Source: Gammaproteobacteria bacterium
Lineage (GTDB): Bacteria; Pseudomonadota; Gammaproteobacteria; Nevskiales; Nevskiaceae
DNA length: 64,000 nt
Assembly: GCA_028871525.1 (NCBI GenBank)
Contig: JAGWMX010000002.1
Location: 4,940 to 68,939, forward strand
Direction: 5' to 3'
Made by a program: the position numbers and the translations under genes. The notes below the pieces were generated by a model that worked only from the letters and a program-made list of their open reading frames with translations, was not told where the DNA came from and searched no databases. Shown piece by piece: positions 841-16,882 of the stretch; position 1 is the stretch's first letter; every line of letters begins with the position of its first letter.

Positions 841-3126
841 TCAGCGACGCAGCAGTCTGGCCGCTTGATCGAGCCGGTCGCTGTAACGATCGATCGCCTC
901 GGCGGTGACCGTCGAATAACGGTCAGCCTGCGACCACAGCCGCTGCTCGATCGTCTCGCGCACCGCCGGCAGGGTTTTGACACCGTAGCCGGTATAGCGC
1001 CCGGGCGCGTAGATCAGGTGCTCGAACCAGGGCCGACCGGGCAGGCCGCCGGCATCCAGAAGCGTCTGCTCCATTCCCCGCAGCAGGTCGTCGAGCCGGG
1101 CCTTCGGCACGTCCAGACCCGCCGTCGCAGCCTCGTCGTAGGCCCGATCGTAGGCAGCGGCGCTGCGTTTGAGACGCACCAGCGCGTTGTCCAACGGCGA
1201 CAGATTCAGGTACGGCACCGCGCTTTCGCGCGCCGGCGGTCCGACCGGCCGCGTCGGATCGGTGGCCAACCGGAAAGCGTCGGCGTCGAGCAGGGTTTCC
1301 AGCGTCTGGCTCCGCCCGCGCTCGCGATCGGCCAGTTGATGCAGCTCTTTCACGTAACGGCCGATGGCCTCGGCCACCGCGGCAAAGCGCAGCGGCAGCA
1401 CGTCGGCGTCGGCCACGCGCAGCATGGTGTGGCCGGCGGTCTTGGCCAGCGTCACGCCGTAGGCGAAGTCCGGGTCGCCGAAACGCAGATAGTGGTCGAA
1501 CGAGTCGTAGCGCGAGTGGTAGATGCCGGCGTCGTCGTCCTCGCCGCCGTACTCCAGACTCAGCGTGGTGATGCCCAGATGCTGCAGGAACGAGCTGTAG
1601 TCGGAACCGGAGCCGAGCGCGGCCAGCGGCAGATCGCCGCCGGTCGCGGCGATTTTCGCCAGGCGCTTGGCCTCGTCCTTGGCCCCCTTCTCGAAGCCGT
1701 TCACCTCCAGTCTGGCGCGCAGCCGCCGGCGCACGGAAACACCCATCTCCGGATCGGTAATGCCAGCCGCCACCTGGTTGACCAGCGCCTGCAGCGCATG
1801 GCTGCCGCCGGCGTCGAGGAACCCACGCGCGTTGGTGTCGGAATTGACGTACAACACCGCGTGTTTCTTCAGCTCGGCGGCGTGCTCTTCGGTCCATTCG
1901 GTCGAACCGATCAGGCCCGGCTCCTCGGCATCCCAGCTGGCGTAGATCAGCGTGCGCTTCGGCCGCCAGCCGGTCTTGAGCAGGCCGCCGATGGCCTTGG
2001 CCTCGGCCAGCAGAGCGATGTTGCCAGCCAGCGGATCCCAGGCACCGAAGGTCCAGCCGTCATGATGGTTGCCGCGGATGACCCACTGGTCCGGATAGGT
2101 GCCGCCCTCGATCCTGGCAATCACGTCGTAGATCGGCTTCCGGCTCCAATCCGAGGCGACCGCCAGGTGCACCCTGGCCGGGCCGGCGCCGACGTGATAA
2201 GTGATCGGCAGCGCCCCGCGCCAACCCTCCGGCGCCACCGGGCCGCCGAGCGCCGCCAGCAGCGGCCGGGCGTCGGCGGCGGAGATCGGCAGCACCGGGA
2301 TCTTGAGGATGTTCTTGACCTCATTCAGCGGCAGCCGCTTGGCGTCCTTGGTGGCGCCGATGCCGGGCGTCAGCGGATCGCCCGGGTAGACTTCCATCTT
2401 CTCCACCGAACCGCGCTGCACGCCAGCGGCCGGCCGCCAACCGCCCTTCGGATAGGCGTCGCCGCGCCAGTAGCCATCGTCCTTCGGGTCGGAATAGATG
2501 ATGCAGCCGATGGCGCCGTGCTGCTGCGCCAGCTCCGGCTTCAGCCCGCGCCAGCCGCCGCCGTAGCGGGCGACGGCGATCCTGCCCTTCACGCTGACAC
2601 CGAGCCGGGCCAGCATCTTGTAGTCGTCCGGCATGCCGTAATTGACATAGACCAGCTCGCCGGTGACGTCGCCGTCGCCGCCATAGACGTTATACGGCGG
2701 CAGCGCGCCGGCGGCGGTGGAGGTGCGGTCGCCAGGGACCGGCGGTTCGCGCAGCGCAGCCTTGAACGCGGTCGGCGCAACCATCTCCAGCGTCTCGGAC
2801 TTCGGCGTCGGATACAGCACGTAGAAGGTTTCGAGATGCGCGTCCCAGCCCCAGGACTTGAACTGCGACAGCATCCATTCGGCGTTGACCTGGTCGTGCT
2901 TTGATCCGACCTGGTTCGGCGCCGAGGACATCCGCCGGAGCCAGGCGCGCAGGTCAGCCGGACTGAGCTGCGCATCGAAACGCTGCTCCAGCAGCGCTTG
3001 CCGCTGCGCAGCGGCGGCGCTGAAACCGAGCATCGGCGGCGATGGGGCATCGCCGGACGCCGCCGCCGAAACCGCTGCGGCAACGCCGAGCACGCCGGCA
3101 CCGACCGTCCACAGAACCTGACGCAT
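841..3126 (-). CDS. Secreted M28 family metallopeptidase with PA and TfR-like dimerisation domains (glutamate carboxypeptidase II-like)
   Basis: The real start is taken at the internal ATG at 3126 (MRQVLWTVGAGVLGVAAAVSAAAS signal peptide). M28 zinc-ligand contexts are present (GNHHDGWTFGAWDPLAG and SWDAEEPGLIGSTEW). The longer 878-aa ORF prefix is low-complexity. Confidence 0.8.
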   Translation of the reverse strand: MRQVLWTVGAGVLGVAAAVSAAASGDAPSPPMLGFSAAAAQRQALLEQRFDAQLSPADLRAWLRRMSSAPNQVGSKHDQVNAEWMLSQFKSWGWDAHLETFYVLYPTPKSETLEMVAPTAFKAALREPPVPGDRTSTAAGALPPYNVYGGDGDVTGELVYVNYGMPDDYKMLARLGVSVKGRIAVARYGGGWRGLKPELAQQHGAIGCIIYSDPKDDGYWRGDAYPKGGWRPAAGVQRGSVEKMEVYPGDPLTPGIGATKDAKRLPLNEVKNILKIPVLPISAADARPLLAALGGPVAPEGWRGALPITYHVGAGPARVHLAVASDWSRKPIYDVIARIEGGTYPDQWVIRGNHHDGWTFGAWDPLAGNIALLAEAKAIGGLLKTGWRPKRTLIYASWDAEEPGLIGSTEWTEEHAAELKKHAVLYVNSDTNARGFLDAGGSHALQALVNQVAAGITDPEMGVSVRRRLRARLEVNGFEKGAKDEAKRLAKIAATGGDLPLAALGSGSDYSSFLQHLGITTLSLEYGGEDDDAGIYHSRYDSFDHYLRFGDPDFAYGVTLAKTAGHTMLRVADADVLPLRFAAVAEAIGRYVKELHQLADRERGRSQTLETLLDADAFRLATDPTRPVGPPARESAVPYLNLSPLDNALVRLKRSAAAYDRAYDEAATAGLDVPKARLDDLLRGMEQTLLDAGGLPGRPWFEHLIYAPGRYTGYGVKTLPAVRETIEQRLWSQADRYSTVTAEAIDRYSDRLDQAARLLRR

Positions 3127-3234
3127 CGCAACTCCCCGTTTCGGTTTTCCGGCATGATAGCCGCGATCGCAGTCGGTGCAGAAGCGGGCCTGACCGTGGC
3201 ATGCTGGCGTCTCAGCTCCTGAACCGTCGGGATC

Positions 3235-3654
3235 ATGACTTATTTCTGGATCAAAACTTTCCATCTGGTGTTCGTCATCGCTTGGATGGCGGCAGTGTTC
3301 TATCTGCCGCGCATCCTGGTCAACATCGCCGAATGCGGCGACCAGCCCGCGGTGCGGCAACAGTTGGAGCTGATGGGTCGAAGGCTGTACCGCTTCGGCC
3401 ACACCATGTTCGGCCTGGCGTTCGCCTTCGGCCTGGTGCTGTGGCTGTACTTCCACATCGCCGGCGCCTGGCTGCACCTCAAGCTCGTGCTGGTGGCTGT
3501 GCTGCTGGCGTACTATGTCTCCGCCGGCCGGATGCTCAAGGCCAGCGCTCGCGGCCGAGTGCTGCCCAGTGGACGCTGGCTGCGCTGGTTCAACGAAATC
3601 CCGCTGCTGCTGCTGATCGCCATCGTGTACCTGGTGATCGCCAAGCCGTTCTGA
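3235..3654 (+). CDS. hemJ: Protoporphyrinogen IX oxidase HemJ (UPF0093/CopD-like membrane protein)
   Basis: 139-aa multi-TM ORF with an N-terminus typical of HemJ (WIKTFHLVFVIAWMAAVFYLPRILV). Confidence 0.7.
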   Translation: MTYFWIKTFHLVFVIAWMAAVFYLPRILVNIAECGDQPAVRQQLELMGRRLYRFGHTMFGLAFAFGLVLWLYFHIAGAWLHLKLVLVAVLLAYYVSAGRMLKASARGRVLPSGRWLRWFNEIPLLLLIAIVYLVIAKPF

Positions 3655-3790
3655 GGCACCATTGCGGCATCGATCGCGCAGCGGGCCGCACCGGCGGCGA
3701 AAACAGCGGGCAGGCCATCATTGCGACAAAGTTGCAAAAAAACCTGTAGGCGGGGGCGTGCACACAACGCCGCCGGGGAGAAAACCGAAG

Positions 3791-6235
3791 ATGAGAGCTT
3801 CCATCCGGGTTGCCAGTTTGTGCCTGCTCGGCCTGCTGTCGGCCCTGCCGTCGCCCGTGCGGGCCACCGACGCGCTCAAACGCATCGGGGACTTCACCGC
3901 CGGCATGCAGCGCATGGACGGCTTACTGCCGCTGTACTGGGACGCCGCCGGCGGCAAGCTGTACCTGGAACTGCCGCACCCCGGCGAGCAGCTGCTGTTC
4001 TTCACCACGCTGACCCAGGGGCTGGGCTCCAACGACGTGGGCCTGGACCGCGGCCAGGTCGCCGACGCCAAGCTGGTGCGCTTGGAGCGCATCGGGCCGA
4101 AGGTATTGCTGGTGCAGCCGAATCAGGCGTTTCGTGCCGACAGCGACGATCCGGACGAACGGCTGGCGACCGAGCAGTCCTTCGCCAGCTCGGTACTGTG
4201 GGGTTTCAAAGTCGTCGCCGTCAGCGGACAGCGGGTGCTGGTGGACGCCACCGGTTTTGTGGTCCGCGACGGCCACGGCGCGATCGACGCGCTGGCCAAG
4301 GCCAAGCAGGGCAAGTTCAAGCTGGACGCCTCCCGTAGCGACGTCTACCTGCCGGGCACCAAGGCGTTTCCGCGCAACAGCGAGATGGAGGCGATCCTGA
4401 CGCTGGACTACGACGACAAAAGCCAGCCGGGTGAATACGTACGCGACGTCACGCCGACCCCCACCGCGATCACCCTGCGCGAGCGCTACTCCTTCGTCGC
4501 GCTGCCGCCGCCGGGATACATGCCGCGCGTCAGCGTGCCGGGCGACGGTTATTTCGAGATCGCCTACGCCGACTACGCGGCGCCGCTCGGCGTGCCGCTG
4601 GTCAAGCACTTCATCGAGCGCCAGCGGCTGACCAAGAAGAACCCCGGCGCGGCGCTCAGCGATCCGGTCGAGCCGATCGTCTACTACCTGGACCGCGGCG
4701 CACCCGAGCCGATCCGCCAGGCGCTGCTGACCGGCGCCCGCTGGTGGAACCAGGCCTTCACCGCCGCCGGCTACCGCGACGCCTTCCGCGTCGAGCTGCT
4801 GCCGAAGGGCGTGGACCCGATGGACGCGCGCTACAACGTGATCCAGTGGGTGCACCGCGCCACCCGCGGCTGGAGCTACGGCGCGTCGATCGTCGATCCG
4901 CGCACCGGCGAGATCATCAAGGCCAACATCACGCTCGGCTCGCTGCGCGCGCGCTACGACTACCTGCTGGCCGAGGGTCTGCTGTCGCCCTACACCCGGC
5001 CCGGCCAGATCCCCGGCGCCTTGCAGCGTTTCGCCATGGCACGGCTGTCGCAACTGGCGGCCCACGAACTCGGACACACGCTGGGCCTGGCCCATAACTA
5101 CATCGCCAGCACCGAGAAGCGCGCCTCGGTGATGGATTACCCGGTGCCGCTGATCAGCCTGACCCCCGGCGGCGAGCTGGATCTTGCCAACGCCTACGCC
5201 ACCGGCATCGGCGCCTGGGACAAGGTGACCATCGACTACGGCTACCAGGACTTCCCGGCCGGCACCGACACCGCGACGGCGCTCGACAAAATCCTGACCG
5301 ACGCGCGCGCCCGCGGCCTGCACTTCATGACCGACCAGGACGCGCGCCCGGCCGGCGCCGCCGATCCGCAGGTCAACCTGTGGGACAACGGCGTCGACAT
5401 GGCTGCGGAGCTGCGCCACGTGATGAAGGTGCGCGCGGTGGCGCTGCAGCACTTCGGCGCCAATGCGATCCGCCGCGGCATGCCGTTGGCGACGATCGAA
5501 GACGCGCTGGTGCCGATCTATCTGTTTCATCGTTACCAGGTCGACGCCACCGCCAAGACTCTCGGCGGACTGGAATACGACTACGCGCTGCGCGGCGACG
5601 GCCAGCGGCCGACCACGCCGGTGTCCGCGAAACGGCAGCTCGAGGCGCTGGACGCGCTGCTGACCACGCTGGCGCCGGAGGCGCTGGCGCTGCCGCCTTC
5701 GCTGATCGCGCAGATCCCGCCGCGCCCGCCCGGCTATCCGTTCACCCGCGAGCTGTTCGCGCGCTACACCGGCCTGACGTTCGATCCGCTGACGCCGGCC
5801 GCCACCGCCGCGGACCTGACGCTGATCAACCTGCTGCAGCCCCAGCGCGACGCGCGGCTGGTCGAACAGCACGCGATGGACCCGTCGCTGCCAGGCCTGG
5901 CACAGGTCGTCGACCGGCTGATCGCCGCGACTTTCGATACCCGCGCGACCGACGGGTACCGGGCCGAGATCCTGCGCGCCGAGCAGACGCTGCTGGTGCA
6001 GCATCTGATGGATCTGGCCGCCGACGCCGACATGCCGCAGGTGCGCGCGGTGGCGGCGCTCAAGCTCGACCAGTTACGCCGCCGTGCCGCCGCGGCCAAA
6101 GGCGGCGACGAGGCCGAGCAGGCGCACCGCTTCGCGCTGGCCTCGGCCATCCGGCGTTTCGAAAAACGCCCGGCCGGCGCCAGCCCGCTGCCCAAGGCGC
6201 CGGTTACGCCGCCCGGCAGTCCGCTGGGCGATTAG
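3791..6235 (+). CDS. Secreted zinc-dependent metalloprotease (HExxH; DUF5117/DUF4953-like)
   Basis: ATG at 3791 follows GGGGAG. A signal peptide is present (MRASIRVASLCLLGLLSALPSPVRA), as is the motif HELGHTLGLAHN...SVMDY. Confidence 0.75.
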   Translation: MRASIRVASLCLLGLLSALPSPVRATDALKRIGDFTAGMQRMDGLLPLYWDAAGGKLYLELPHPGEQLLFFTTLTQGLGSNDVGLDRGQVADAKLVRLERIGPKVLLVQPNQAFRADSDDPDERLATEQSFASSVLWGFKVVAVSGQRVLVDATGFVVRDGHGAIDALAKAKQGKFKLDASRSDVYLPGTKAFPRNSEMEAILTLDYDDKSQPGEYVRDVTPTPTAITLRERYSFVALPPPGYMPRVSVPGDGYFEIAYADYAAPLGVPLVKHFIERQRLTKKNPGAALSDPVEPIVYYLDRGAPEPIRQALLTGARWWNQAFTAAGYRDAFRVELLPKGVDPMDARYNVIQWVHRATRGWSYGASIVDPRTGEIIKANITLGSLRARYDYLLAEGLLSPYTRPGQIPGALQRFAMARLSQLAAHELGHTLGLAHNYIASTEKRASVMDYPVPLISLTPGGELDLANAYATGIGAWDKVTIDYGYQDFPAGTDTATALDKILTDARARGLHFMTDQDARPAGAADPQVNLWDNGVDMAAELRHVMKVRAVALQHFGANAIRRGMPLATIEDALVPIYLFHRYQVDATAKTLGGLEYDYALRGDGQRPTTPVSAKRQLEALDALLTTLAPEALALPPSLIAQIPPRPPGYPFTRELFARYTGLTFDPLTPAATAADLTLINLLQPQRDARLVEQHAMDPSLPGLAQVVDRLIAATFDTRATDGYRAEILRAEQTLLVQHLMDLAADADMPQVRAVAALKLDQLRRRAAAAKGGDEAEQAHRFALASAIRRFEKRPAGASPLPKAPVTPPGSPLGD

Positions 6236-6268
6236 GCGGCAAAGCTTTACCTTTCTTTGGAGTGATCC

Positions 6269-9247
6269 ATGCGCATTCGCAGCTTGCTATGCGTGCTGGC
6301 CGCAGGCGGCCTGAGTTCGCTGGCGCTGGCCGCGGCGGCCGGCGTCTACGCCCGCGATCCGAACCAGCCGATCGACCGCGCTTACACCGACGCCATCGCG
6401 CGCGACACGACCGCTCCCGAGTTCAACTCGCCGCTGACCGACTACCTGCCGGCGTCGCGCACCGTACCGACGCCGCTTAAGGTGCTCGGGCATATCGCGG
6501 GCGCGCGCGACTGGCTGCCGTATTCGGCCGACGTGTATCGCTATTTCCGCGCGCTGGCCGCGGCCAGCCCCCGGGTGCGGGTGTTTTCGATCGGCAGAAC
6601 CGAGGAAGGCCGCGAGATGATCGCGGTGGCGGTGGCCGACGCCCGGTTGCTCGACGACCAGGCCGCCAACCAGGCGCGGTTGGCGCAGCTCGCCGATCCG
6701 CGGCGCATCGGCATGGACGACGCCAGGGCCGACGCGCTGGTGGCACAGACCACGCCGGTCTACTACATCACCGGCGCCATCCATTCCGACGAGACCGGCG
6801 CCCCGACCGCGCTGATGGAGCTGGCCTACCGGCTGGCGGTGGACGACGCTCCCTACATTCGCGACATCCGCGAGCACGTGATCACGCTGATCACGCCGAT
6901 CGTCGAAGTCGACGGCCGCGACCGCATGGTGGACCTCTACAACTGGCACCGCGCGCATCCCAAGGATCACTACCCGCCGCTGGAGTACTGGGGCCACTAC
7001 GTCGCCCACGACAACAACCGCGACGCGATGGCGATGACGCTGGATCTCACCCGCAACGTGGCCGACACCTACATCGGCTGGCACGCGCAGGTGCTGCACG
7101 ACCTGCACGAGTCGGTGCCGTTCTTCTACGACAACACCGTCGGCGACGGCCCGTACAACGCCTGGATCGACCCGATCCTGACCGGCGAGTGGCAGGCCCT
7201 GGGCTGGGACAACGTGCAGGAGATGACCAAGCTGGGCATGCCCGGCGTGTTCACCCACGGCGACTTCGACACCTGGAGCCCCGGCTACTTGATGTTCATC
7301 GCCGCGATGCACAACGGCATCAGCCGTCTGTACGAAACGTTCGGCAACGGCGGCGCCGACACCGAAAAACGCATCCTCACGCCGGATGAATACGCCCGCA
7401 CCTGGTACAAACCCAACCCGCCGTTGCCGGAAGTCACCTGGTCGGCGCGCGACAACAACAACTACGAGGAAACCGGCCTGCTGATCGCGCTGCACTACTT
7501 CGCCGACCACCGCGCGCTGTTCCTGAAAAACTTCTATCTGAAAGCCAAGCGCTCGATCGAAAAACCCTATCACGCCGGCCCGGCCGCCTACCTGCTGCCG
7601 GCCGACGACGTGCGCGCCGCCTCCCAGGCCGCGCTGCTGCGCGTGCTGCAGCGCCAGCACGTGGAGATCCGCCGTCTGGACGCCGCCGTGACCGTGAACC
7701 TGGCCTCGGACCAGAACCGCGACCCGGCCGCCGCACAGTCCGCCGGCCCGCCGCCCGCCGCCGACCGAACCTTCCCGGCCGGCAGCTACGTGGTGCGCAT
7801 GGACCAGCCCTACTCGCGCGTCGCCGACGCGCTGCTCGACCGCCAATACTGGTCGCCGGACGATCCGCAGCAGCATCCATACGACGACACCGGCTGGACT
7901 TTCGGCCCGCTGTTCAACGTCGAGGTGGTCCGCGTGACCGATACCAAGATCCTCGCGGCGCCGATGCACCTGGTACCGGCACCGTTGCCGTCGCCGGGCC
8001 GGGTCGAAGGAAACGGCCGATTTTGGCTGGTTGCCAACCACGCGCAACCGCAACTGATCCAGTTGCGCTACGCGCTGCCACACGCCAGCGTGCGTTCCAC
8101 CGACACCGCGTTCGATCGCCTGGGCCGACACTACCCCACCGGCAGCCTGGTGATCAGCGGCGTCGATCGCAACACGCTGGCCGCCGCCGTCGACGCCGCC
8201 GGCCTGTCGGCGCAAGCGGCACCAGTGGCTCCGCCGGTGTCCACCCACCCGGTCGGCCTGCCGCGGATCGCGCTGATGCACACCTGGCTGGATACGCAGA
8301 CCGAAGGCTGGTGGCGCATGGCGCTGGATCGCCTGCACATCCCCTACGCCTACATCAGCACCCAGGACGCGGCCCGGCAGGCCGACCTGCGCAGTCGCTA
8401 CGACGTGATCCTGTTCCCGCCGGTCGGAAACGGCGTCAGCCCGCAGACGATCGTCGACGGCCTGCCGATGTGGGGCAACCCGATGCCGTGGAAGAAAACC
8501 GCGCTGACGCCGAACCTCGGACGGATCGACTCCACCGACGACGTCCGCCCCGGCCTCGGCGCGGCGGGGCTGGCCAACCTGCGACGCTTCGTCGACGGCG
8601 GCGGCCTGCTGGTGACCAGCCAGGACACCGCGCGCCTGGCGCTCGAACGGGGGCTGGCGCCCGGCGTGTTCGTGGCCGATACGCCGAAAGTGCGGGTGGT
8701 CGGCAGCGTGCTGCAGGCACGCTTCGTCGACGGCGCCGGCCCGGTCGCCGACGGCTACGACGACACTCTGGCCGTCTACAGCGCGCACGGCATGAGCTTC
8801 ACCCTCAGCAACCTGGTCAGCGGCAGCGACGACCTACCCAACGCCGCCGACTACCGGCGGCCCACCGGCCGCGGCGGCCCCGACGCACCGGACGTACCGC
8901 AGGGCCGCCGCTACGTCCCGCCGCCGCCGCTGCCGGACGCCAAGCCCTGGCAGGCGCTGCCGCTCAACGACGAACAGGTGCGCAACAACCCCTTCGTGAT
9001 TCCGCCGGACCAACGCCCGCATACCATTCTGCGCTTCGCGCAGACCAAAGACCTGCTGGTCTCCGGCCTGCTGGCGGACGGCGATCAACTGGCCAAGCGC
9101 GCCGCCGTAGTCGACGCCCGCTACGGCAACGGCCACGTCCTGCTGTTCGCCATCGACCCGATCTGGCGCGGCGAAACCATCGGCAGCCAGGCGCTGGTCT
9201 TCAACGCGATTTTGCACCGCGATCGGCTTTCGTCGGAGCCGAAATAG
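6269..9247 (+). CDS. Large secreted M14-like zinc carboxypeptidase family protein
   Basis: 992-aa ORF with a signal peptide and an M14 HxxE context (IHSDETGAPTALMELAYRL). A GGAG sits upstream of the ATG. Confidence 0.65.
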   Translation: MRIRSLLCVLAAGGLSSLALAAAAGVYARDPNQPIDRAYTDAIARDTTAPEFNSPLTDYLPASRTVPTPLKVLGHIAGARDWLPYSADVYRYFRALAAASPRVRVFSIGRTEEGREMIAVAVADARLLDDQAANQARLAQLADPRRIGMDDARADALVAQTTPVYYITGAIHSDETGAPTALMELAYRLAVDDAPYIRDIREHVITLITPIVEVDGRDRMVDLYNWHRAHPKDHYPPLEYWGHYVAHDNNRDAMAMTLDLTRNVADTYIGWHAQVLHDLHESVPFFYDNTVGDGPYNAWIDPILTGEWQALGWDNVQEMTKLGMPGVFTHGDFDTWSPGYLMFIAAMHNGISRLYETFGNGGADTEKRILTPDEYARTWYKPNPPLPEVTWSARDNNNYEETGLLIALHYFADHRALFLKNFYLKAKRSIEKPYHAGPAAYLLPADDVRAASQAALLRVLQRQHVEIRRLDAAVTVNLASDQNRDPAAAQSAGPPPAADRTFPAGSYVVRMDQPYSRVADALLDRQYWSPDDPQQHPYDDTGWTFGPLFNVEVVRVTDTKILAAPMHLVPAPLPSPGRVEGNGRFWLVANHAQPQLIQLRYALPHASVRSTDTAFDRLGRHYPTGSLVISGVDRNTLAAAVDAAGLSAQAAPVAPPVSTHPVGLPRIALMHTWLDTQTEGWWRMALDRLHIPYAYISTQDAARQADLRSRYDVILFPPVGNGVSPQTIVDGLPMWGNPMPWKKTALTPNLGRIDSTDDVRPGLGAAGLANLRRFVDGGGLLVTSQDTARLALERGLAPGVFVADTPKVRVVGSVLQARFVDGAGPVADGYDDTLAVYSAHGMSFTLSNLVSGSDDLPNAADYRRPTGRGGPDAPDVPQGRRYVPPPPLPDAKPWQALPLNDEQVRNNPFVIPPDQRPHTILRFAQTKDLLVSGLLADGDQLAKRAAVVDARYGNGHVLLFAIDPIWRGETIGSQALVFNAILHRDRLSSEPK

Positions 9248-9726: not shown

Positions 9727-12219
9727 TCATCCAATCTTGCCCCGCAAGTTATCGGCGAGTGCGGAAAGCGCATTAGCGAGCTGCCTCGCGGTTTCCGGTG
9801 GCGGCAGCGGCAGCTTTAGGCTTTGCACGCCTGTGGTCGGATCGCGCTCGATCCAGGGATGCGCTGGAGCGTTGGAATCGTTGGCGGCCCCCAGAGCGGA
9901 AATAAGCTGCGCGCCGACCTGTGCCAAGGCTTGCCACGGATCGCTACCTGTATCGCGCGGCGATGCTCCGGCCCCATCGGTCCGCGCGCTCGTCATCTCG
10001 CCAGCGCCAAGGGTTACATCCGTATTTACATCTTCCACGAATCCGGCGTCATCGGCAGTGACGCCACTCCTTATTTCCTCAGCCGGTGTCACGGCCTCGC
10101 CCTCACCCATACGCCCAGTGACGTTTTCCACGTCCTTCATGAAACGGTTGAGACGCGAACCGCCGAGCGAAATCTCGCCGCTGCCGCCGTCGAGAATTCC
10201 GGCCGATAAGGAGCGTTTGAACGCCAGCACCGACAGCATGCCTTCCTCGATGCTGCCCTTTGCGACGAAATTGATGATCTGTACCGGCCGTATCTGGTCC
10301 AGGCGATGGATGCGCGCGATGCGCTGTTCGAGGATCGCCGGGTTCCACGGCAAGTCCATGTTCACCACGGTCGAAGCATGCTGCAGATTGAGGCCGGTGC
10401 TGCCGGCATCGGTCGACAGGAACACGCGGCAGGCGGGGTCGTCACGAAACCGCTCGACCAGCGCCGGCCGTTTGTCCGACGGCACGCCGCCGTGGAAGCT
10501 GACATAGCCCAGCCGGCGCGCTTCGAGGCGGCGGATGACGATGTCGTGGGTCCGCGTCCATTGCGAAAACACCACTGCCTTAGCCGCGGGCTCGGCGAAC
10601 AATTCGTCGAATAAAGCCGCCAATTCGTCAGCCTTGACGCCATGGTCGGTTTCTCGGTCCAGCAGATAGGTGCTGTTGCACGACATGCGCATGTTCTGTA
10701 GCGCACAAGTCAGCCGCCGCTGATCCTTATCCGACAGAAACCTGGTCTTGCGCCAGCGCTGGACGATTTTCGCCACCACGTCGGCGTTTTCCTGGTGATA
10801 AAGCATCTGCATCTCGGTCATCGGCACCAGCAGGTTCTGGTCGGTCCGGCTGGGCAGTTGCCGCAACACCTCGGATTTGCGCCGGCGGATCATGATTGGC
10901 GCCAGCGTTTGGCCGATCTTCTCGAGACCCGTATAGCCGGTGACGCGCCCGGCTTCGTCCTTGATCTGATGCTCATGCAGCAGCTTCCAGGTCGGCCCCA
11001 GCCGGTGCTGATCGACGAACTGGACGATGGAAATCAGTTCTTCCAGCTTGTTTTCCAGGGGCGTCCCGGTCAGCACGATCGCATAGGCGCTGTCGATGCG
11101 TTTCAAAGCGCGCGCCGCGATGGTGTTCCAGTTTTTCACCCGTTGCGCTTCATCGACGATGACGAGTTCGGGTGCCCAGGCGGCGATCAGGTCGAGATCG
11201 GGCTTGAGTTTCTCGTAGTTGGTGATCTTGCAGAAATCATCCAGGGCATAGTCCTTCTGCCGTTGTGCTCGGCCGCCGTTGATGACGCGTGCCGCGGTTT
11301 CGCCCTGTCGTCCCGAGAAACGCATGATCTCGCTTTGCCACTGATATTTCAGCGAGGTCGGGCAGACCACCAGAACTTTCGAGACGCCGAAATGCCGCGC
11401 CAGTATTTCCGTCGCGGCAATGGCCTGTATGGTCTTGCCCAGCCCCATGTCGTCGCCGATCAGCGACCGGCCGGCCCGCACCGCGAACAGCGCGCCCTCG
11501 GCCTGATACGGATAGAGCGACACCTTCAACAACGTCAGCAACCCGGGATCGGCAGCACCGCGTGGGAACAACTGCTCGAGCTTTGAGGCCCGCCGGTCCG
11601 CATCCCGCCTACCGGCGATGAAATCGAGCGCATCATCGTATGCTCGCAACTCATGACCGCTCTTCGCCGCCACGGTCATGAACTGCTCCAATTCGCCAAA
11701 GCGCGTCTCCGCCAGTATCCCGTTGCGTTCGGTGTCGAACAAGGCCGCGGCGGCCTCCCTTACCGCCGGCGGGCAGTCCGTTCCCGCACGAAAATGCACG
11801 CTGCGCTTGCCGTCATTGCGCAAATAGATCTCTGAGAACGCAGGCCGGTAGCCGCGCGCAAACGCCGTCTTGGCGCCGCGCTTTTTCTCCAGCCGGGCGA
11901 GCGTAAATTCGATGTGCTTGCAGGTGCCCAACTCACTGGTGGCATAATCGGGGCATGAACAGAAATTGCCGCCTGGCCCCATGCCCCGGATCGCCACGCG
12001 ATAGCAGGATTTCGAAACGGGATTGCTGACCCGAAACTCGGAGAAAAACGGCTCGTTACCCAGATTCTCAAGCCCGAAGGCCTGCTCGCGGCCGAATTGG
12101 CGGCGCAAGCCTCGTTGCCAATCCAACGGCGAAAGTTCGGCGGGCGCGTGGGTGCGCGAGAGCTTAGGTTCCTTTTCCGGTTTGATCGCGGAATTCAGGT
12201 TTAGGCGCTTGGATTTCAT
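9727..12219 (-). CDS. SWIM zinc-finger + SNF2-family ATPase/helicase with an acidic low-complexity C-terminal tail
   Basis: 830 aa. SWIM motif CSCPDYATSELGTCKH. SNF2 motifs LIGDDMGLGKT, VIVDEAQRVKN and TGTPLEN. Helicase-C motifs LSTDAGSTGLNL and WNPAILEQRIARIHR. Confidence 0.85.
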   Translation of the reverse strand: MKSKRLNLNSAIKPEKEPKLSRTHAPAELSPLDWQRGLRRQFGREQAFGLENLGNEPFFSEFRVSNPVSKSCYRVAIRGMGPGGNFCSCPDYATSELGTCKHIEFTLARLEKKRGAKTAFARGYRPAFSEIYLRNDGKRSVHFRAGTDCPPAVREAAAALFDTERNGILAETRFGELEQFMTVAAKSGHELRAYDDALDFIAGRRDADRRASKLEQLFPRGAADPGLLTLLKVSLYPYQAEGALFAVRAGRSLIGDDMGLGKTIQAIAATEILARHFGVSKVLVVCPTSLKYQWQSEIMRFSGRQGETAARVINGGRAQRQKDYALDDFCKITNYEKLKPDLDLIAAWAPELVIVDEAQRVKNWNTIAARALKRIDSAYAIVLTGTPLENKLEELISIVQFVDQHRLGPTWKLLHEHQIKDEAGRVTGYTGLEKIGQTLAPIMIRRRKSEVLRQLPSRTDQNLLVPMTEMQMLYHQENADVVAKIVQRWRKTRFLSDKDQRRLTCALQNMRMSCNSTYLLDRETDHGVKADELAALFDELFAEPAAKAVVFSQWTRTHDIVIRRLEARRLGYVSFHGGVPSDKRPALVERFRDDPACRVFLSTDAGSTGLNLQHASTVVNMDLPWNPAILEQRIARIHRLDQIRPVQIINFVAKGSIEEGMLSVLAFKRSLSAGILDGGSGEISLGGSRLNRFMKDVENVTGRMGEGEAVTPAEEIRSGVTADDAGFVEDVNTDVTLGAGEMTSARTDGAGASPRDTGSDPWQALAQVGAQLISALGAANDSNAPAHPWIERDPTTGVQSLKLPLPPPETARQLANALSALADNLRGKIG

Positions 12220-12402
12220 CGAAGCCCATTCCGTTCAGCAAAAGTTTCTCGCAAGACATTCATCTGGCATCCCATGCCTTTTCCCCCGTGCTGGCGCTAC
12301 TTTCGTATTTCAAGCAACGCCGGATGACCAGTGTCCACGAAACCGATGATCGGCACATTACGGTTTTCACCAGCGTCCAATTGGTTCCGCCGCAGAGCCG
12401 GA

Positions 12403-14904
12403 CTATTCAACCATGTAACCGAGCGCCCGGTATCCCGTTCGCCGCTTTGCTGCCATGCGCGCCAGCACTGGGACCATTTCATCGACATAGTCGACGACGA
12501 CAACCTCGGTCTTCCCGTTATGCTGGCGGTGCAGACGGCCAACATATTGGGCCAGCGTGCCTTTCCAGGAGATGGGCATCGTCAGGAATAGCGTGTCGAG
12601 CCTTTGATCGTCGAAGCCCTCACCAAGATAGCGCCCCGTAGCAAGGATAAGCCGTTCCTGGCCATCGTCTACTCGGAGGGTAACCTCAGCCGCCTTGCGT
12701 TCGCCGGTAGACATCCCGCCCCGAAGGACGACAAGATTGCGCACGAAGCGCGAAAAGCGGCCTTGAAGATATTCGAGATGATCCCGGCGCTCAGTCAGCA
12801 CGACCGGTGATCGCTTCGCCTCCAGCGCTTTCAACACGTCGTCGAAGATCAGGTTATTGCGCGGCTCATCCTGGGCGATGGCCGCATAGATCGCCGGCAT
12901 AGAAGGACGGTCCGACCCCGCCAGAGGTGGCGGAAGTTGAAACTGCGTCGACCGGTGTTTGGCGCGGTGGGTAATCCCCCGTCCGACCGCATGCGCACGC
13001 GCATCAACGCGATGTCGAACAGGGCCACACTGCATAAAGATGATCGGATGGTGCCCATCTTTGCGAGCCACGGTCGCAGACAGCCCGAGCACACAGCGCG
13101 CTTTCGCCCGGCGGGCCACCAGCTCAAAACTCGCCGCCGAAAGATGATGGCACTCGTCGACAACCAGATGACCATAGTCCGCTACCATGTCGGATACTTC
13201 GCCTCGGTGCACGAGGCTCTGGATCAGCGCGACATCAATGACGCCAGTCGGCTTGCGGCGTCCGCCGCCAATGACGCCGATGTCCTTCGGATCGATATCG
13301 AGAAATGTCCTTAGCCGCTCCACCCACTGGGTGAGCAACTCGCGACGATGAACAAGAACGAGCGCATTGCGTCCGCGTTGCGCAATAAGAGCCGCGGCCA
13401 CCGCCGTCTTGCCGAAAGCGGTCGTCGCCGCGAGCACGCCATGGTCATGCGGAAGAAGGGCCTCAAACGCCTTGACCTGTGGTTCGTACAGCGTCCCCTG
13501 AAACCGTACTCGGCTCGCAAGCGGACTGCCAATCACCCTCAGATCATTCAACTCAACCTCGGCGCCCTCGGCTCGGATCAGCTCAACAACCTCGTCGAGG
13601 CAGCCGCGGGGCAGCCCCACATGACGCCGATGAAGTTCGGCACAGGAGATAATTCGCGGTTTGCCGAAGGTCGGGAAACGCATGGACTGCGCACGATAGA
13701 ACTCTGGGTTTTGGAAGGCCGCCAGGCGTATGAGCCGCGCCGTCGTTGCCGGCGGCAAATCGGTCCGATCGATATAGAGTTGGTCGGCGACCACTATCGT
13801 GATCTTGCCCGATAGGGGACTGTCAACCGGGCCCGCCCTGGGGCGCCGAGACGGAGTCATTCGCCAGGGCTCGTCCGCATCTTCATCTTCGACCGGCATG
13901 CGGACGCCCAGAATACGGCCCCGCGTCTCCGCATCGTCGACGATTTCGGCGGCGGCCCCGGCCGATAGCCGTGGCCTCGCCGCCAGAAACGCCCATTGGT
14001 CGTCGTATGGACGAAGGTCTTGGTCAATGAAGACACTGTTTCCAAGCTCGCGCGCCCGACGCTGCAAAGGCAAGGCAATCAGATTACCGAAGCCGCCGGC
14101 CGGCATGGTGTCCTGGCTCGGGAAAAAGCGATCGTATGAGGCGAAACCTATTTCGGGTCGACGCTCCATCGTCTCCGTCAGCATCGCCGCGCCAAGCTGC
14201 CGAGCGGTGCGCGCCGAAACCGACTCGGAGAAGAAAATCCACACATGCCCGCCATTGCCGGATCGAGACCGCTCAAGGGCCGCGGGCACGCCCTTGGCCT
14301 GGCAAGTCTCCAGCACGGCCAAGGCGTCAGCCGCCCAGCTCTCCTCGTCAAAATCGGCGGCCAAAAACCAGCAGGTCTCGTCAGGAAGCAGCGGATAAAC
14401 ACCCGCCACGAAATCGCCGCCAGAGCCGCGCTCACCCTCGCCGCGCAGATGCTTTTCGATGATGTCGTCGGTGACTGGGATGAAGGCTTGATGAGGGCAA
14501 GCCCCGCATTTCACCCGAGGCTTGCCGCATATCCCCTTAACCCACTCGTTGGCGCACGCGGGCGCATAGCCCGACTTGGCGGTCTTCCGGTTTTCCCACC
14601 TGACAGGGAATACGTCAGCGCGGCCTGCGAATAGGCGCCGAAACAGCGCGATCTTTTCCGCGGTGGGTGACGCGGCCATGACCCTAGGCGCATCTGCAAT
14701 GGCGGGTGGTGAATGATTTGCTGCCGCCGCCGAGGACCGGTTCACGAGACCCCTCAGCGCGGCCTCAAGCTCTCTCCGCTCCGCTTCATTTGCGGCTAAA
14801 CGAACTCGAATCTGCTCAATCTCGACCTCAAGTTCATGCGCAGTCTCGGCGCCACCGTCCAGCGCCAGTCGTTTCGACACATCTCCGCTCAGCCCGGCCT
14901 TCAT
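12403..14904 (-). CDS. Archaeo-eukaryotic primase (AEP/PrimPol-like) domain fused to an SF2 DEAD/DEAH (ResIII-type) helicase
   Basis: 833 aa with an N-terminal coiled coil. AEP motifs are FLAADFDE (DxD), SRSGNGGHVWIFF (sGxGxH), SYDRFFPSQD and GNLIALPLQ. A Cys knuckle KCGACPH is inserted. Helicase motifs are ATTAFGKT, VVDECHH and LSAT, plus a helicase-C region. From memory, RefSeq labels similar proteins as a TOTE conflict system AEP domain-containing protein; I could not verify this here. Confidence 0.8.
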   Translation of the reverse strand: MKAGLSGDVSKRLALDGGAETAHELEVEIEQIRVRLAANEAERRELEAALRGLVNRSSAAAANHSPPAIADAPRVMAASPTAEKIALFRRLFAGRADVFPVRWENRKTAKSGYAPACANEWVKGICGKPRVKCGACPHQAFIPVTDDIIEKHLRGEGERGSGGDFVAGVYPLLPDETCWFLAADFDEESWAADALAVLETCQAKGVPAALERSRSGNGGHVWIFFSESVSARTARQLGAAMLTETMERRPEIGFASYDRFFPSQDTMPAGGFGNLIALPLQRRARELGNSVFIDQDLRPYDDQWAFLAARPRLSAGAAAEIVDDAETRGRILGVRMPVEDEDADEPWRMTPSRRPRAGPVDSPLSGKITIVVADQLYIDRTDLPPATTARLIRLAAFQNPEFYRAQSMRFPTFGKPRIISCAELHRRHVGLPRGCLDEVVELIRAEGAEVELNDLRVIGSPLASRVRFQGTLYEPQVKAFEALLPHDHGVLAATTAFGKTAVAAALIAQRGRNALVLVHRRELLTQWVERLRTFLDIDPKDIGVIGGGRRKPTGVIDVALIQSLVHRGEVSDMVADYGHLVVDECHHLSAASFELVARRAKARCVLGLSATVARKDGHHPIIFMQCGPVRHRVDARAHAVGRGITHRAKHRSTQFQLPPPLAGSDRPSMPAIYAAIAQDEPRNNLIFDDVLKALEAKRSPVVLTERRDHLEYLQGRFSRFVRNLVVLRGGMSTGERKAAEVTLRVDDGQERLILATGRYLGEGFDDQRLDTLFLTMPISWKGTLAQYVGRLHRQHNGKTEVVVVDYVDEMVPVLARMAAKRRTGYRALGYMVE

Positions 14905-15039
14905 GGAGTAGGCTCTCCAGTTGGTCGCCGGCCTCGTCTCACACGAGGCACCGGCGACTTGTCACCGGATTTCCAAGCCTTGATGTTCTGCACCTTCCAT
15001 CGCAACGCTGGACAGATTTCTATAGCGGAGTGCACATAG

Positions 15040-15165
15040 GAGGCGCACCGCTGGCGAAGGTATAACGCCCGCGGTGCAGTCATTTTCGTGCGTTACGCCG
15101 ATGACATCGTGGCGGGATTTGAGCACGAATGGGAAGCCAAGCGCTTTGTGGCGGAGCTTCCAGCA
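15040..15165 (+). pseudogene. Group II intron-type reverse transcriptase fragment (RT motif 5 region only)
   Basis: The frame-1 translation RWRRYNARGAVIFVRYADDIVAGFEHEWEAKRFVAEL matches the conserved ..RWRR....G..IIVRYADDxVVGFEH..DA.RF block of bacterial group II intron RTs. An in-frame stop lies immediately upstream (15037-15039) and similarity is lost after about 15160. Confidence 0.55.
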
Positions 15166-15210
15166 TCAATTTGCCTCTCATGGTATCGATGTCTTCTGCC
15201 TTGCTACGCG

Positions 15211-15300
15211 CAATAAATACCATGAAAATACCATTGATGATGCAGATTACATTTATTATTGATTAGATTTATTTAATTTTTATAAATCAATGTGCTAAAA
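15211..15300. other. AT-rich block (20% GC by hand count) abutting the guaA stop codon
   Basis: 18 G/C in 90 nt, counted by hand, against roughly 60-73% elsewhere. It contains a weak inverted repeat attgatt/aatcaat. Confidence 0.8.
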
Positions 15301-15307
15301 AATCCGG

Positions 15308-16882
15308 TCACTCCCACTCGATCGTCGCTGGCGGTTTGCCAGTGATGTCGTAGACGACGCGAGAGATACCCGGCACTTCGTTAACGATGCGGCGGGCACA
15401 TTCGTCGAGCAGTTCATACGGCAGATGCGCCCAGCGCGCGGTCATGAAATCGATCGTCTCGACCGCGCGCAGGGCAATCACCGGCTCGTAGCGGCGGCCA
15501 TCGCCGGTAACACCGACGCTTTTGCTCGGCACATAGACCGCGAATGCCTGACTGGTGCGCTCATACCAGCCGGAGCGGCGCAATTCCTCGATGAAAATCG
15601 CGTCTGCCTGGCGCAGCGCCTCGGCAGCTTGCGCGGTGACTTCGCCGAGGATGCGCACACCAAGACCCGGCCCCGGGAACGGATGACGCGTAACCAGTTT
15701 CCGCGGCAGACCGAGTTCCACGCCGATCTCCCGTACCTCGTCCTTGAACAACTCACGCAGCGGTTCGATCAGCTTGAGCTTCATCGTCTCGGGCAGGCCG
15801 CCGACATTGTGATGGCTTTTGATTACCCGGGCCTTGCCCGTCGCCGCGCCGGCCGACTCGATGACATCCGGGTAGATCGTGCCCTGCGCGAGGAACTCAA
15901 TGTCCTTGAGTTGTTGCGCCTGTTCGTCAAACACCTCGATGAACATGCGGCCGATGATCTTGCGCTTGGCTTCCGGGTCGGTGATTCCGCTCAGCGCCTG
16001 GAAAAAGCGCGGCCCGGCGTCGACACGGATCACGCGCGCGCCGAGATGCTCGGCAAATACCCGCATCACTTGATCGCTTTCGCCGAGCCGCAGCAGACCG
16101 TGGTCGACGAACACGCAGGTGAGACGATCGCCGATCGCCGTGTGCAGCAGCGCGGCGACCACCGAGGAATCAACGCCGCCGGACAGCGCCAGCAGCACGC
16201 GGCCGGCGCCGACCTGCGCTCGCGCGCGGGCGATGGCGTCGTCGATGATGTTTGCCGGAGTCCATGCCGACCCGCAGCCGCAGAGTTCGTGCGCAAAGCG
16301 GTGATAGATGCGCGCGCCCTGCGGGGTGTGGGTGACCTCGGGGTGAAACTGCAGTCCGTAAAAGCGGCGGCCCTCGTCGGCCATGCCGGCGATCGGCACG
16401 TCGCGGGTGCTGGCGATGGTCGTGAACCCGGGCGGCAGTTCGACCACGCGGTCGCCATGGCTCATCCAGACGTCGAGCAGTCCGTGGCCGTCGGCGTTGG
16501 CGCGATCCTGGATGTCGCGCAGCAGCGCCGAGTGCCCGCGTGCGCGCACCTCTGCATAGCCAAACTCCTTGACCGCCCCCGCCTCGACGCGCCCGCCGAG
16601 TTGCATCGCCATCATCTGCATGCCGTAACAGATACCGAGTACCGGCACACCGAGCGTCCACACTGTCCGCGGCACACGCGGACTGCCATCGCGGGTCACG
16701 CTGTCCGGCCCGCCGGACAACACCACGCCGCGTGGGGCGAAGGCGACGACGGCCGCATCGTCCATATCCCACGGATGGATCTCGCAGTAGACGCCGCACT
16801 CGCGGATGCGCCGTGCGATCAGTTGAGTGTACTGCGAGCCGAAGTCGAGGATCAGGATCCGATCGGCGTGGATGTTGGCGAC
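15308..16882 (-). CDS. guaA: GMP synthase (glutamine-hydrolysing)
   Basis: C-terminus ...KPPATIEWE, GATase catalytic context GICYGMQ, and ATP-PPase motif SGGVDSSV. The first start codon in frame is the ATG at 16765 (485 aa). The conserved N-terminus [39 protein letters not shown] continues upstream in frame to about 16882 without any ATG/GTG/TTG, so the 5' boundary is unresolved. Confidence 0.9.

Follow-up and report, generated by a model that had tools for sequence, protein, structure and literature searches.

TOTE conflict systems, whose name stands for TPR, OB, TBP and Effector, have been described computationally (Aravind, Iyer and Burroughs 2022, as cited in PMC12458937). On the Thermus element ICETh2, a primase-polymerase (Prim-Pol) with an adjacent helicase, Ppol-Hel, is not needed for replication of the element and lowers the uptake of foreign DNA (PMC7693054), and the pAgo-associated Prim-Pol AgaPP is paired with a PriCT-DUF3987 helicase (PMC11724360). 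Here we analyze two neighbouring genes on a 64,000-nucleotide stretch of contig JAGWMX010000002.1 from a Gammaproteobacteria bacterium (assembly GCA_028871525.1), the whole of which is called the window below. Gene 1 encodes a protein of 833 amino acids in which a Prim-Pol domain of the archaeo-eukaryotic primase (AEP) type is fused to an XPB-like superfamily 2 (SF2) helicase, and gene 2, lying 183 nt away on the same strand, encodes an SNF2 ATPase of 830 amino acids with a SWIM zinc finger; they are referred to as AEP-helicase and SNF2, respectively. In agreement with the first-pass annotation of this DNA, both open reading frames (ORFs) are intact and lie in a low-GC segment (0.57-0.63 across ~9.5-15.5 kb vs 0.67-0.71 in both flanks). 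The annotation had further proposed that the two genes form one conserved conflict system. Its picture of foreign DNA that carries intact proteins, with a conflict-type behaviour of the AEP-helicase, stands, whereas the conserved two-gene system is not supported. With a little better than even confidence, we conclude that the islet holds two separable modules, an AEP-helicase that would be an autonomous cargo of mobile or defence-type DNA and an SNF2 that would usually be independent of it, and that the low-GC segment of 6 kb is what remains of an accretion islet that was acquired horizontally at the guaA 3' end, with a Nevskiales-like host and an alphaproteobacterial donor lineage, this degree of confidence covering both statements jointly.

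Association of the two genes across genomes

Every AEP-helicase at least 83% identical to gene 1 that comes with downstream DNA has SNF2 adjacent to it, and within this clade the pair is retained in at least four different flanking contexts, some of them away from guaA (L001 and L252; related loci are designated by L numbers). The order guaA-AbiEi-AbiEii-pair is seen in L004-L006 and L089, the pair resides on two metagenome-assembled genome (MAG) contigs in L007 and L008, and it stands beside a terminase remnant and HipBA in L252 and has an AAA-S8 protease pair and a Prim-Pol gene as neighbours in L001 (Methylocystis echinoides). The setting in L001 (5734-8682) is defence-island-like, with an IetAS-like pair of AAA ATPase and S8 protease and a separate Prim-Pol/HTH gene. 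Apart from the scattered cases given below, SNF2 follows the AEP-helicase only in this clade. In relatives of 78-80% identity, the downstream gene encodes an HD protein (L003) or a Fic protein (L253, a composite bounded by insertion sequences (IS)), and no neighbour is conserved among ~70 more distant loci from many phyla. Conserved-neighbour clustering of 80 AEP-helicase loci gave as its largest clusters C-terminal extensions of the gene itself, not partners.

The survey from the SNF2 side covered 83 loci at 79-90% identity, 73 of which have at least 300 nt of upstream DNA. The AEP-helicase is absent in 59 of these 73 and lies directly upstream in nine (interrupted in two), while the remaining loci show only remnants of it beside an intact SNF2 (3/73) or another arrangement (2/73). 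SNF2 follows the guaA 3' end at a distance of 42-2029 nt, without an AEP-helicase in the interval, in 15 loci (L088, L090, L099, L109, L110, L112, L118, L122, L134, L136, L139, L146, L149, L154 and L158). Where a cassette is present upstream of SNF2, it is VapBC (PIN plus RHH; several loci) or a GNAT toxin (L094). Ordinary metabolic genes are found beyond SNF2 in the guaA-SNF2 loci, each of which looks like an integrase-less islet accepting swappable cassettes. A VapBC pair even separates the AEP-helicase from SNF2 in L159, and the two genes decay independently of each other, with the AEP-helicase being interrupted in L089 and L168 and SNF2 in L008. Given that the AEP-helicase is absent from most SNF2 loci and that its own neighbours vary, the reading of one strict system is not supported, and because the two families are not conserved neighbours elsewhere, the strict pair hypothesis of the first-pass annotation fails. 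Judged by these sequence comparisons, the pairing is lineage-specific and does not appear to be obligate, and SNF2 is the constant backbone of guaA-linked islets in which the AEP-helicase is one interchangeable insert, others being VapBC, the GNAT toxin and AbiE. In the lineage of the window, both genes travel together, and they probably cooperate.

Distant members of both families have nevertheless been juxtaposed repeatedly. In L169, 39 nt separate an AEP-helicase of 51% identity from an SNF2 of 80% identity downstream of it, and 39%-identical SNF2 genes lie on the same strand 111 nt upstream of the AEP-helicase in L045 and 328 nt downstream of it in L177. Other distant neighbours are convergent (L070, L084), divergent (L083) or 2.5 kb apart (L085), and a SWIM finger like that of gene 2 is present in the SNF2 proteins of L045, L084 and L085. 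Bacterial genomes hold an estimated ~1-3 SNF2 genes per 4-5 Mb, and by rough expectation well under one chance SNF2 neighbour would fall into the ~650 kb of flanking DNA. Such recurrent juxtaposition renders a looser, facultative link plausible, and with it a facultative cooperation of the two proteins.

Clustering at 50% identity divides the AEP-helicase family at large into more than 3,270 clusters with E<1e-30, and at least 600 matched stretches were found among species-representative genomes of many phyla. There are 162 matching plasmid records, 98 of them at full length and 91 of them conjugative plasmids, with the 73-76% identical clade being carried by rhizobial and roseobacter plasmids; a search for near-identical DNA to the locus on plasmids found none. 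On an E. albertii plasmid (L173, 8274-14211), the gene travels as the passenger of a Tn3-family transposon, between resolvase and transposase. Elsewhere it sits with Fic between inverted IS copies in the style of a composite transposon (L253, 54-13145), or adjoins a HigB toxin-antitoxin pair on an Acinetobacter plasmid that has an AAA ATPase and a HipA pair further downstream. In E. coli, where the homologue WP_000233452.1 is 47% identical, it stands alone in an int-alpA-yfjI-Gp2 (P4-like) island by ycdU (L172, NZ_OQ420472.1, 178904-181264); this record is labelled as a plasmid and looks chromosomal. Of 5,426 complete E. coli genomes, up to 1,730 matched this homologue (684 at a coverage of 80% or more), and it is common in O157:H7 and O26, with IS3-family (IS1203-like) insertions interrupting it in some strains. 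Pseudogenisation is frequent among the related loci. Copies at 72-76% identity were observed on a Rhizobium plasmid (L170) and an S. meliloti plasmid (L171). The former shows the order ParB-DUF932-AEP-helicase with a methyltransferase-helicase and a toprim gene nearby, and in the latter traA and traG immediately precede the AEP-helicase and a TniQ gene is located upstream. An imuB/dnaE2 cluster was noted ~5 kb from the Labrys copy.

The partners of the AEP-helicase are variable and its neighbourhoods are of conflict type. Adjacent same-strand ORFs were assigned by Pfam to AbiEii (four loci), AAA_14/DUF4143, PIN/DUF3368, Fic and Schlafen-AlbA_2, and further to Uma2, DUF559, Cas_GSU0053, an integrase and a Mu transposase. 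Longer homologues possess C-terminal PLDc_2 or DUF559/REase_MTES_1575 domains, or N-terminal PNP_UDP_1, GNAT or FMN-reductase-like domains. No full-length copy was found in phage genomes and no PHROG family matches the whole protein, with ~35 full-length copies in 2.9 million viral contigs. Taken together, distribution, contexts and variable effectors are typical of an autonomous accessory gene on mobile DNA and not of a replication gene. By its genomic behaviour, the AEP-helicase family thus resembles a conflict or defence gene.

Protein architecture and the guaA-linked islet

Gene 1 is laid out as a coiled coil, a Cys-rich segment, a CAPP-like Prim-Pol (AEP-TOTE), a linker domain and an XPB-like SF2 helicase (Table 1), bearing out the coiled coil, intact AEP domain and complete SF2 helicase of the first-pass annotation. 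The coiled-coil segment is heptad-like and is aligned in most homologues. The Pfam family AEP-TOTE (PF22548) matches residues 83-315 at E 1.4e-96 (323 bits vs a cut-off of 27, profile positions 1-224 of 230), and the PADLOC PrimPol model PDLC01465 ('PrimPol, CAS-associated') matches gene 1 at E 9e-89. Pfam places ResIII/DEAD at residues 471-614 and, weakly, Helicase_C at residues 695-793, with the helicase motifs being AATTAFGKT (GKT 498-500), VDECHH (DECH 583-586), SAT (609-611) and QxxGR (786-790). In an alignment of 31 sequences, comprising gene 1 and 30 homologues at 35-82% identity, the AEP residues D184, D186, S213, H220 and D258 are invariant, as are the helicase residues G498-K499-T500, D583-E584-x-H586, A610-T611 and Q786..G789-R790; by this alignment, all catalytic motifs of gene 1 are intact. 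RKD stands where XPB has its RED motif, in the segment after motif III.

An AlphaFold2 (AF2) model of gene 1 built from the 31-sequence alignment (mean pLDDT 87.5, pTM 0.80) consists of a long N-terminal helix (residues 19-62), an AEP fold, the linker domain and two RecA-like lobes. Foldseek searches against the Protein Data Bank (PDB) gave CAPP as the best match for the AEP domain (7nqd/7nqf; TM 0.80, rmsd ~3.5 Å, 20-23% identity), while the top 30 matches of the C-terminal half were all XPB chains (TFIIH XPB and archaeal XPB/XPBII) with E down to 2e-20. Similarly, phmmer against the PDB matched gene 1 to XPBII (6p4f) at E 1.6e-19 and to CAPP at E 1e-6. A Cys-rich stretch ahead of the AEP core (residues 117-138, window ~14491-14556), without family annotation, contains C117, C126, C133, C136 and H138, of which C117 and C133 hardly vary within the family; the stretch may represent a zinc knuckle.

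For gene 2, Pfam detects SNF2-rel_dom at residues 253-516 (E 3e-43) and Helicase_C at residues 534-640, and the closest solved relative is a Rad54-like SNF2 protein of Sulfolobus (1z63, E 1e-43). The Pfam SWIM match is sub-threshold (E 0.16, 12 bits vs a cut-off of 19.6), and the ligands C87-x-C89...C100-x-H102 are invariant among homologues of 34-91% identity. Gene 2 accordingly belongs to the SWIM-SNF2 ATPases, with a CxC..CxH finger N-terminal to the SNF2 core, and the SWIM finger, SNF2 motifs (GLGKT, DEAQ) and acidic tail that had been annotated were all recovered. The tail beyond about residue 690 has a few conserved columns (L814, L818) and matches no Pfam family. No nuclease domain was found in gene 2, in which Pfam finds SNF2-rel_dom, Helicase_C and the sub-threshold SWIM only.

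Table 1. Features of the locus, with positions in the window
Feature	Position	Strand	Basis
AEP-helicase gene (gene 1, 833 aa)	14904..12403	minus	ORF and translation
N-terminal coiled coil of gene 1, aa 19-62	14719..14850	minus	single long helix in AF2 model; weak leucine-zipper Pfam match
AEP/Prim-Pol catalytic domain of gene 1, aa 83-315	13960..14658	minus	PF22548, Foldseek and invariant residues
XPB-like SF2 helicase of gene 1, aa 471-830	12415..13494	minus	ResIII, DEAD, Helicase_C; phmmer; Foldseek
SWIM-SNF2 ATPase gene (gene 2, 830 aa)	12219..9727	minus	ORF and translation
SWIM zinc finger of gene 2, aa 81-105 (C87, C89, C100, H102)	11905..11979	minus	sub-threshold Pfam match and invariant ligands
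SNF2 ATPase core of gene 2, aa 229-690	10150..11535	minus	GLGKT, DEAQ, helicase C lobe
Acidic low-complexity C-terminal tail of SNF2, conserved terminal segment	9730..10149	minus	translation
Terminator-like hairpin and T-run right after SNF2 stop codon	9705..9726	minus	
abiEii toxin gene remnant, last 45 codons, directly upstream of gene 1	14907..15041	minus	tblastn, DNA alignment
Possible reverse-transcriptase fragment (..FVRYADDIV..)	15040..15213	plus	six-frame translation; sub-threshold RVT_1, E 0.09
guaA (GMP synthase), anchor gene, upstream of gene 1	16765..15308	minus	Pfam
guaB, upstream of guaA	18476..16896	minus	
M14 peptidase gene, convergent with the gene pair	6269..9247	plus	

The islet genes are foreign to their host. 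GuaA of the window, whose true start lies upstream of the listed ORF to give a product of 535 amino acids, is 100% identical to the 535-residue GuaA of a gammaproteobacterial MAG, and the nearest named relatives, at 78-84% identity, are Nevskia, Stenotrophobium and Fontimonas. By contrast, the closest relatives of both islet genes, at 85-93% identity, come from alphaproteobacterial genomes (Xanthobacteraceae, Beijerinckiaceae, Methylocystis) and soil metagenomes. These different identities indicate that the segment was acquired horizontally across classes into the same landing place, the guaA 3' end. In alphaproteobacterial and soil loci with guaA and SNF2, GuaA is 52-57% and SNF2 81-90% identical to that of the window, and over all guaA and SNF2 loci (L004 and L088-L169 vs the window) SNF2 identity is 77-100% (median 85%) and GuaA identity 52-100% (median 72%), with a correlation of r 0.36. 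That SNF2 is more alike than GuaA and that the two identities correlate poorly indicates that the SNF2 islet moves between distant hosts and keeps landing after guaA. Genomic islands such as GIsul2 and Tn5801-like elements are described as using guaA as their attachment site (PMC9376610, PMC4844618). Look-ups by exact sequence returned no record for the AEP-helicase of the window or for the matching GuaA.

Debris between gene 1 and guaA, which the first-pass annotation had mentioned as mobile-element debris, could be traced to an abiEii remnant and a weak reverse-transcriptase (RT)-like fragment. The former is 76% identical to residues 300-344 of L004 AbiEii (tblastn, E 1.6e-14). AbiE is intact in L004-L006 and L089, and the remnant thus implies that the islet derives by deletion from a guaA-abiEi-abiEii-AEP-helicase-SNF2 arrangement. 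The RT-like fragment may derive from the RT of a group II intron or a retron, and a very AT-rich stretch (~15215-15300) separates it from the guaA stop codon. At the nucleotide level, the pair is homologous to L092, L089 and L004 from 15035 to 9716 of the window; the first 130 nt of this stretch are abiEii codons, and its far end lies within ~15 nt of the SNF2 stop codon, at the hairpin. An abiEii remnant was also noted after SNF2 in L094 (4685-4765) and L161 (5269-5369). A conserved upstream 'element' of ~100 nt that recurs after SNF2 in these two loci was considered as a recombination or regulatory site and was rejected as being the abiEii 3' end.

A search of the window for a second copy of the guaA 3' end (attR) gave nothing above chance, and a generic repeat search of the window returned short chance matches only. 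Copies of the guaA 3' end are present beyond SNF2 in L136 (5878-5960, 8537-8770) and L124 (2764-3150), and truncated ones before SNF2 in L134 (816-920) and L146 (229-795), a pattern suggestive of att-like repeats and of tandem accretion at guaA. No recombinase or integrase was found near the SNF2 islets, the downstream genes being ordinary SDR and GST genes. In the closest named relative, a Nevskia sp. MAG (L254), the contig ends ~100 nt after guaA, as would fit a variable or repeated region there.

Within the window, the interval from guaA to the M14 peptidase gene holds no integrase, relaxase, partition gene, methyltransferase or nuclease, in line with the earlier view that this is not an ordinary replication or mobility module. 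Window scans near the locus gave no tRNA, CRISPR-like array, tandem repeat or Rfam match, and a promoter scan of the locus found no sigma-70-like site and is uninformative. No terminator separates gene 1 from gene 2, the terminator-like hairpin being found only after SNF2. Housekeeping genes (xseA, threonine dehydratase, an aminotransferase and others) continue past guaB. On the other side of the islet, three large predicted peptidases stand in a row (window 841-9247; M28/PA/TFR_dimer, DUF5117 plus DUF4953 Met-zincin, and M14), and the long antisense ORFs over their genes are typical of high-GC DNA.

Competing explanations and a possible mechanism

The reading of two separable modules has to be weighed against an obligate two-gene defence system in which AEP-helicase and SWIM-SNF2 are both required. 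The genes are co-directional without a terminator between them, are kept together in every relative of at least 83% identity with downstream DNA even at the non-guaA sites of L001 and L252, and meet again in L169, where their identities are 51% and 80%, and in the distant pairs of L045 and L177. However, an SNF2 without AEP-helicase is the state of 59 of the 73 close SNF2 loci, with three more keeping remnants only beside an intact SNF2, SNF2 is missing from most AEP-helicase loci, HD or Fic takes its place already in relatives of 78-80% identity, and both the VapBC inserted in L159 and the independent decay in L089, L168 and L008 argue against mutual dependence. We therefore regard an obligate pair as unlikely. 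Even less probable, in our view, is a role in establishment or replication of mobile elements, by which the Prim-Pol-helicase would prime after transfer as plasmid primases do and the chromosomal copy would be a leftover of an integrated element. The XPB-like SF2 motor is not an SF3/DnaB-type replicative hexamer, and copies travelling as a Tn3 passenger, in an IS composite or at chromosomal hotspots without replicon, oriT or integrase do not fit such a role, nor do the nuclease and PNP fusions of relatives and the essential absence of the family from phage genomes. Furthermore, the Thermus ICE Prim-Pol is dispensable for element replication and lowered foreign DNA uptake (PMC7693054). What speaks for establishment is that fusions of AEP and helicase are the classical replicases of small mobile elements (PMC11724360), that 91 of the 162 plasmid matches are conjugative, with the 73-76% clade on rhizobial and roseobacter plasmids, and that copies lie by ParB/DUF932 and methyltransferase-helicase and toprim genes or after traA/traG.

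A cargo for DNA-damage tolerance or repair, with the Prim-Pol repriming or joining ends, the XPB-like motor opening DNA and SNF2 clearing stalled complexes, is the least probable of the three. Its patchy distribution, rapid turnover and frequent pseudogenes do not match a repair function, its neighbours are mainly toxin-antitoxin, Abi and mobile-element genes instead of repair operons, and PLD, REase-like, PNP and Fic partners fit attack better than repair, even though XPB (nucleotide-excision repair/TFIIH), RadD and UvsW come closest in structure, the AgaPP type of bacterial Prim-Pol acts in repair (PMC11724360), E. coli PrimPol-RT serves the oxidative-damage response as well as defence (PMC12439943), and the Labrys copy has imuB/dnaE2 in its vicinity. 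Some points also weigh against the separable-module reading itself. The literature searched yielded no experiment with a member of either family, so that the defence role is guilt by association. The version in the window is without a nuclease or other obvious killing domain, which leaves the effector step unexplained. Conjugative plasmids make up 91 of the 162 matching records and some copies are near transfer or leading-region-type genes; the settings of L170 and L171 could mean a role in transfer or establishment, and ParB, DUF932 and traA/traG as neighbours could instead reflect a function that serves the element itself. XPB and PrimPol-type enzymes, the closest relatives by structure, are repair and replication proteins, and the enrichment of SNF2 near distant AEP-helicases was judged by rough expectation, not by a formal control.

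For the AEP-helicase as an autonomous module, a mechanism can be proposed in which the coiled coil would mediate oligomerisation and the XPB-like motor would load on and open invading or replicating duplex or forked DNA. The Prim-Pol could then synthesize primers or short DNA on the exposed strand, with the outcome that replication of the invader is derailed or its DNA is handed to an effector. In other lineages this effector would be the PLD or REase-like nuclease present in cis, while the lineage of the window may either have none or use the SNF2 translocase as a second motor. The second module would be a SWIM-SNF2 double-strand DNA translocase without a nuclease. Extending this scheme, the AEP-helicase might be the core of a new nuclease-independent immunity with SNF2 as a facultative second motor and with both being delivered by small integrase-less islets that would target the guaA 3' end and accept swappable defence cassettes, a proposal that we hold to be rather doubtful.

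The AEP-helicase fusion is among the more abundant catalogued cargo genes of mobile DNA, and up to a third of complete E. coli genomes, O157:H7 included, give a match to a homologue (at full length in ~13%). If it is a true defence protein, it would represent a polymerase-driven mechanism that is neither reverse transcriptase nor CRISPR-linked, and the E. coli copy makes this good candidate for polymerase-based defence directly testable. For annotation, the locus is a warning that adjacent large ATPase genes are not always one system.

Comparison with known systems

No characterised system of this composition was assigned by PADLOC, NCBIfam or the literature searched, in agreement with the first-pass annotation. 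The RefSeq label that the annotation had mentioned for the AEP clade was found on homologues, which RefSeq/PGAP names 'TOTE conflict system archaeo-eukaryotic primase domain-containing protein', and the window Prim-Pol matches AEP-TOTE (PF22548) over its full length. However, the window has neither a TPR-cold-shock/OB gene nor a TATA-binding-protein (TBP) gene, and no TPR, cold-shock or TBP family is found among the adjacent same-strand ORFs of ~80 related loci. As for the effector, some relatives have a PLD, REase-like or PNP domain and some an HD or Fic gene next to them, and the copy in the window has none of these unless SNF2 takes that part. Given the lack of TPR, OB and TBP genes, the locus is not a canonical TOTE system.

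CAPP (7NQD/7NQF), the closest solved structure, shares the Prim-Pol fold and catalytic residues with the AEP domain of gene 1. By contrast, the window is without cas genes or a CRISPR-like array, its Prim-Pol is fused to an XPB-like helicase, and the NCBIfam CRISPR PrimPol model NF040561 scores 72.8 bits on gene 1 vs a cut-off of 200. Similarly, XPB/Rad25 is the best sequence and fold match for residues ~450-830, with the same order of motifs including the segment after motif III, but gene 1 differs from it in having RKD for RED, in lacking a Bax1-type nuclease partner and in its polymerase fusion, and scores far below the XPB models (NF045503, 54 bits vs a cut-off of 610; TIGR00603, 19.7 vs 328.7).

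Gene 2 shares its SNF2 ATPase core with the defence helicases HmaA, DrmD, ZorD, DpdE and IetH and, like Halomonas hmaA (PMC11232893), lies at a site that receives other defence-type cassettes. Its NCBIfam scores stay far below the cut-offs of DrmD (145/610), ZorD (109/1500) and DpdE (116/500), and it departs from DISARM, Zorya, Dpd and Hma in carrying a SWIM finger and in being without partner genes and without a nuclease domain, which HmaA and ZorD possess. With ICETh2 Ppol-Hel and AgaPP, gene 1 has in common the combination of Prim-Pol and helicase on mobile DNA; those, however, are separate proteins from other AEP and helicase families with an SF3-type or other helicase (PMC11724360), whereas gene 1 is one polypeptide with an SF2 motor. 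This motor, along with the absence of replicon genes from the window locus, also distinguishes gene 1 from the replicative AEP primase-helicases with SF3/DnaB helicases. The AEP domain family had already been catalogued, and its combination with SNF2 is lineage-specific.

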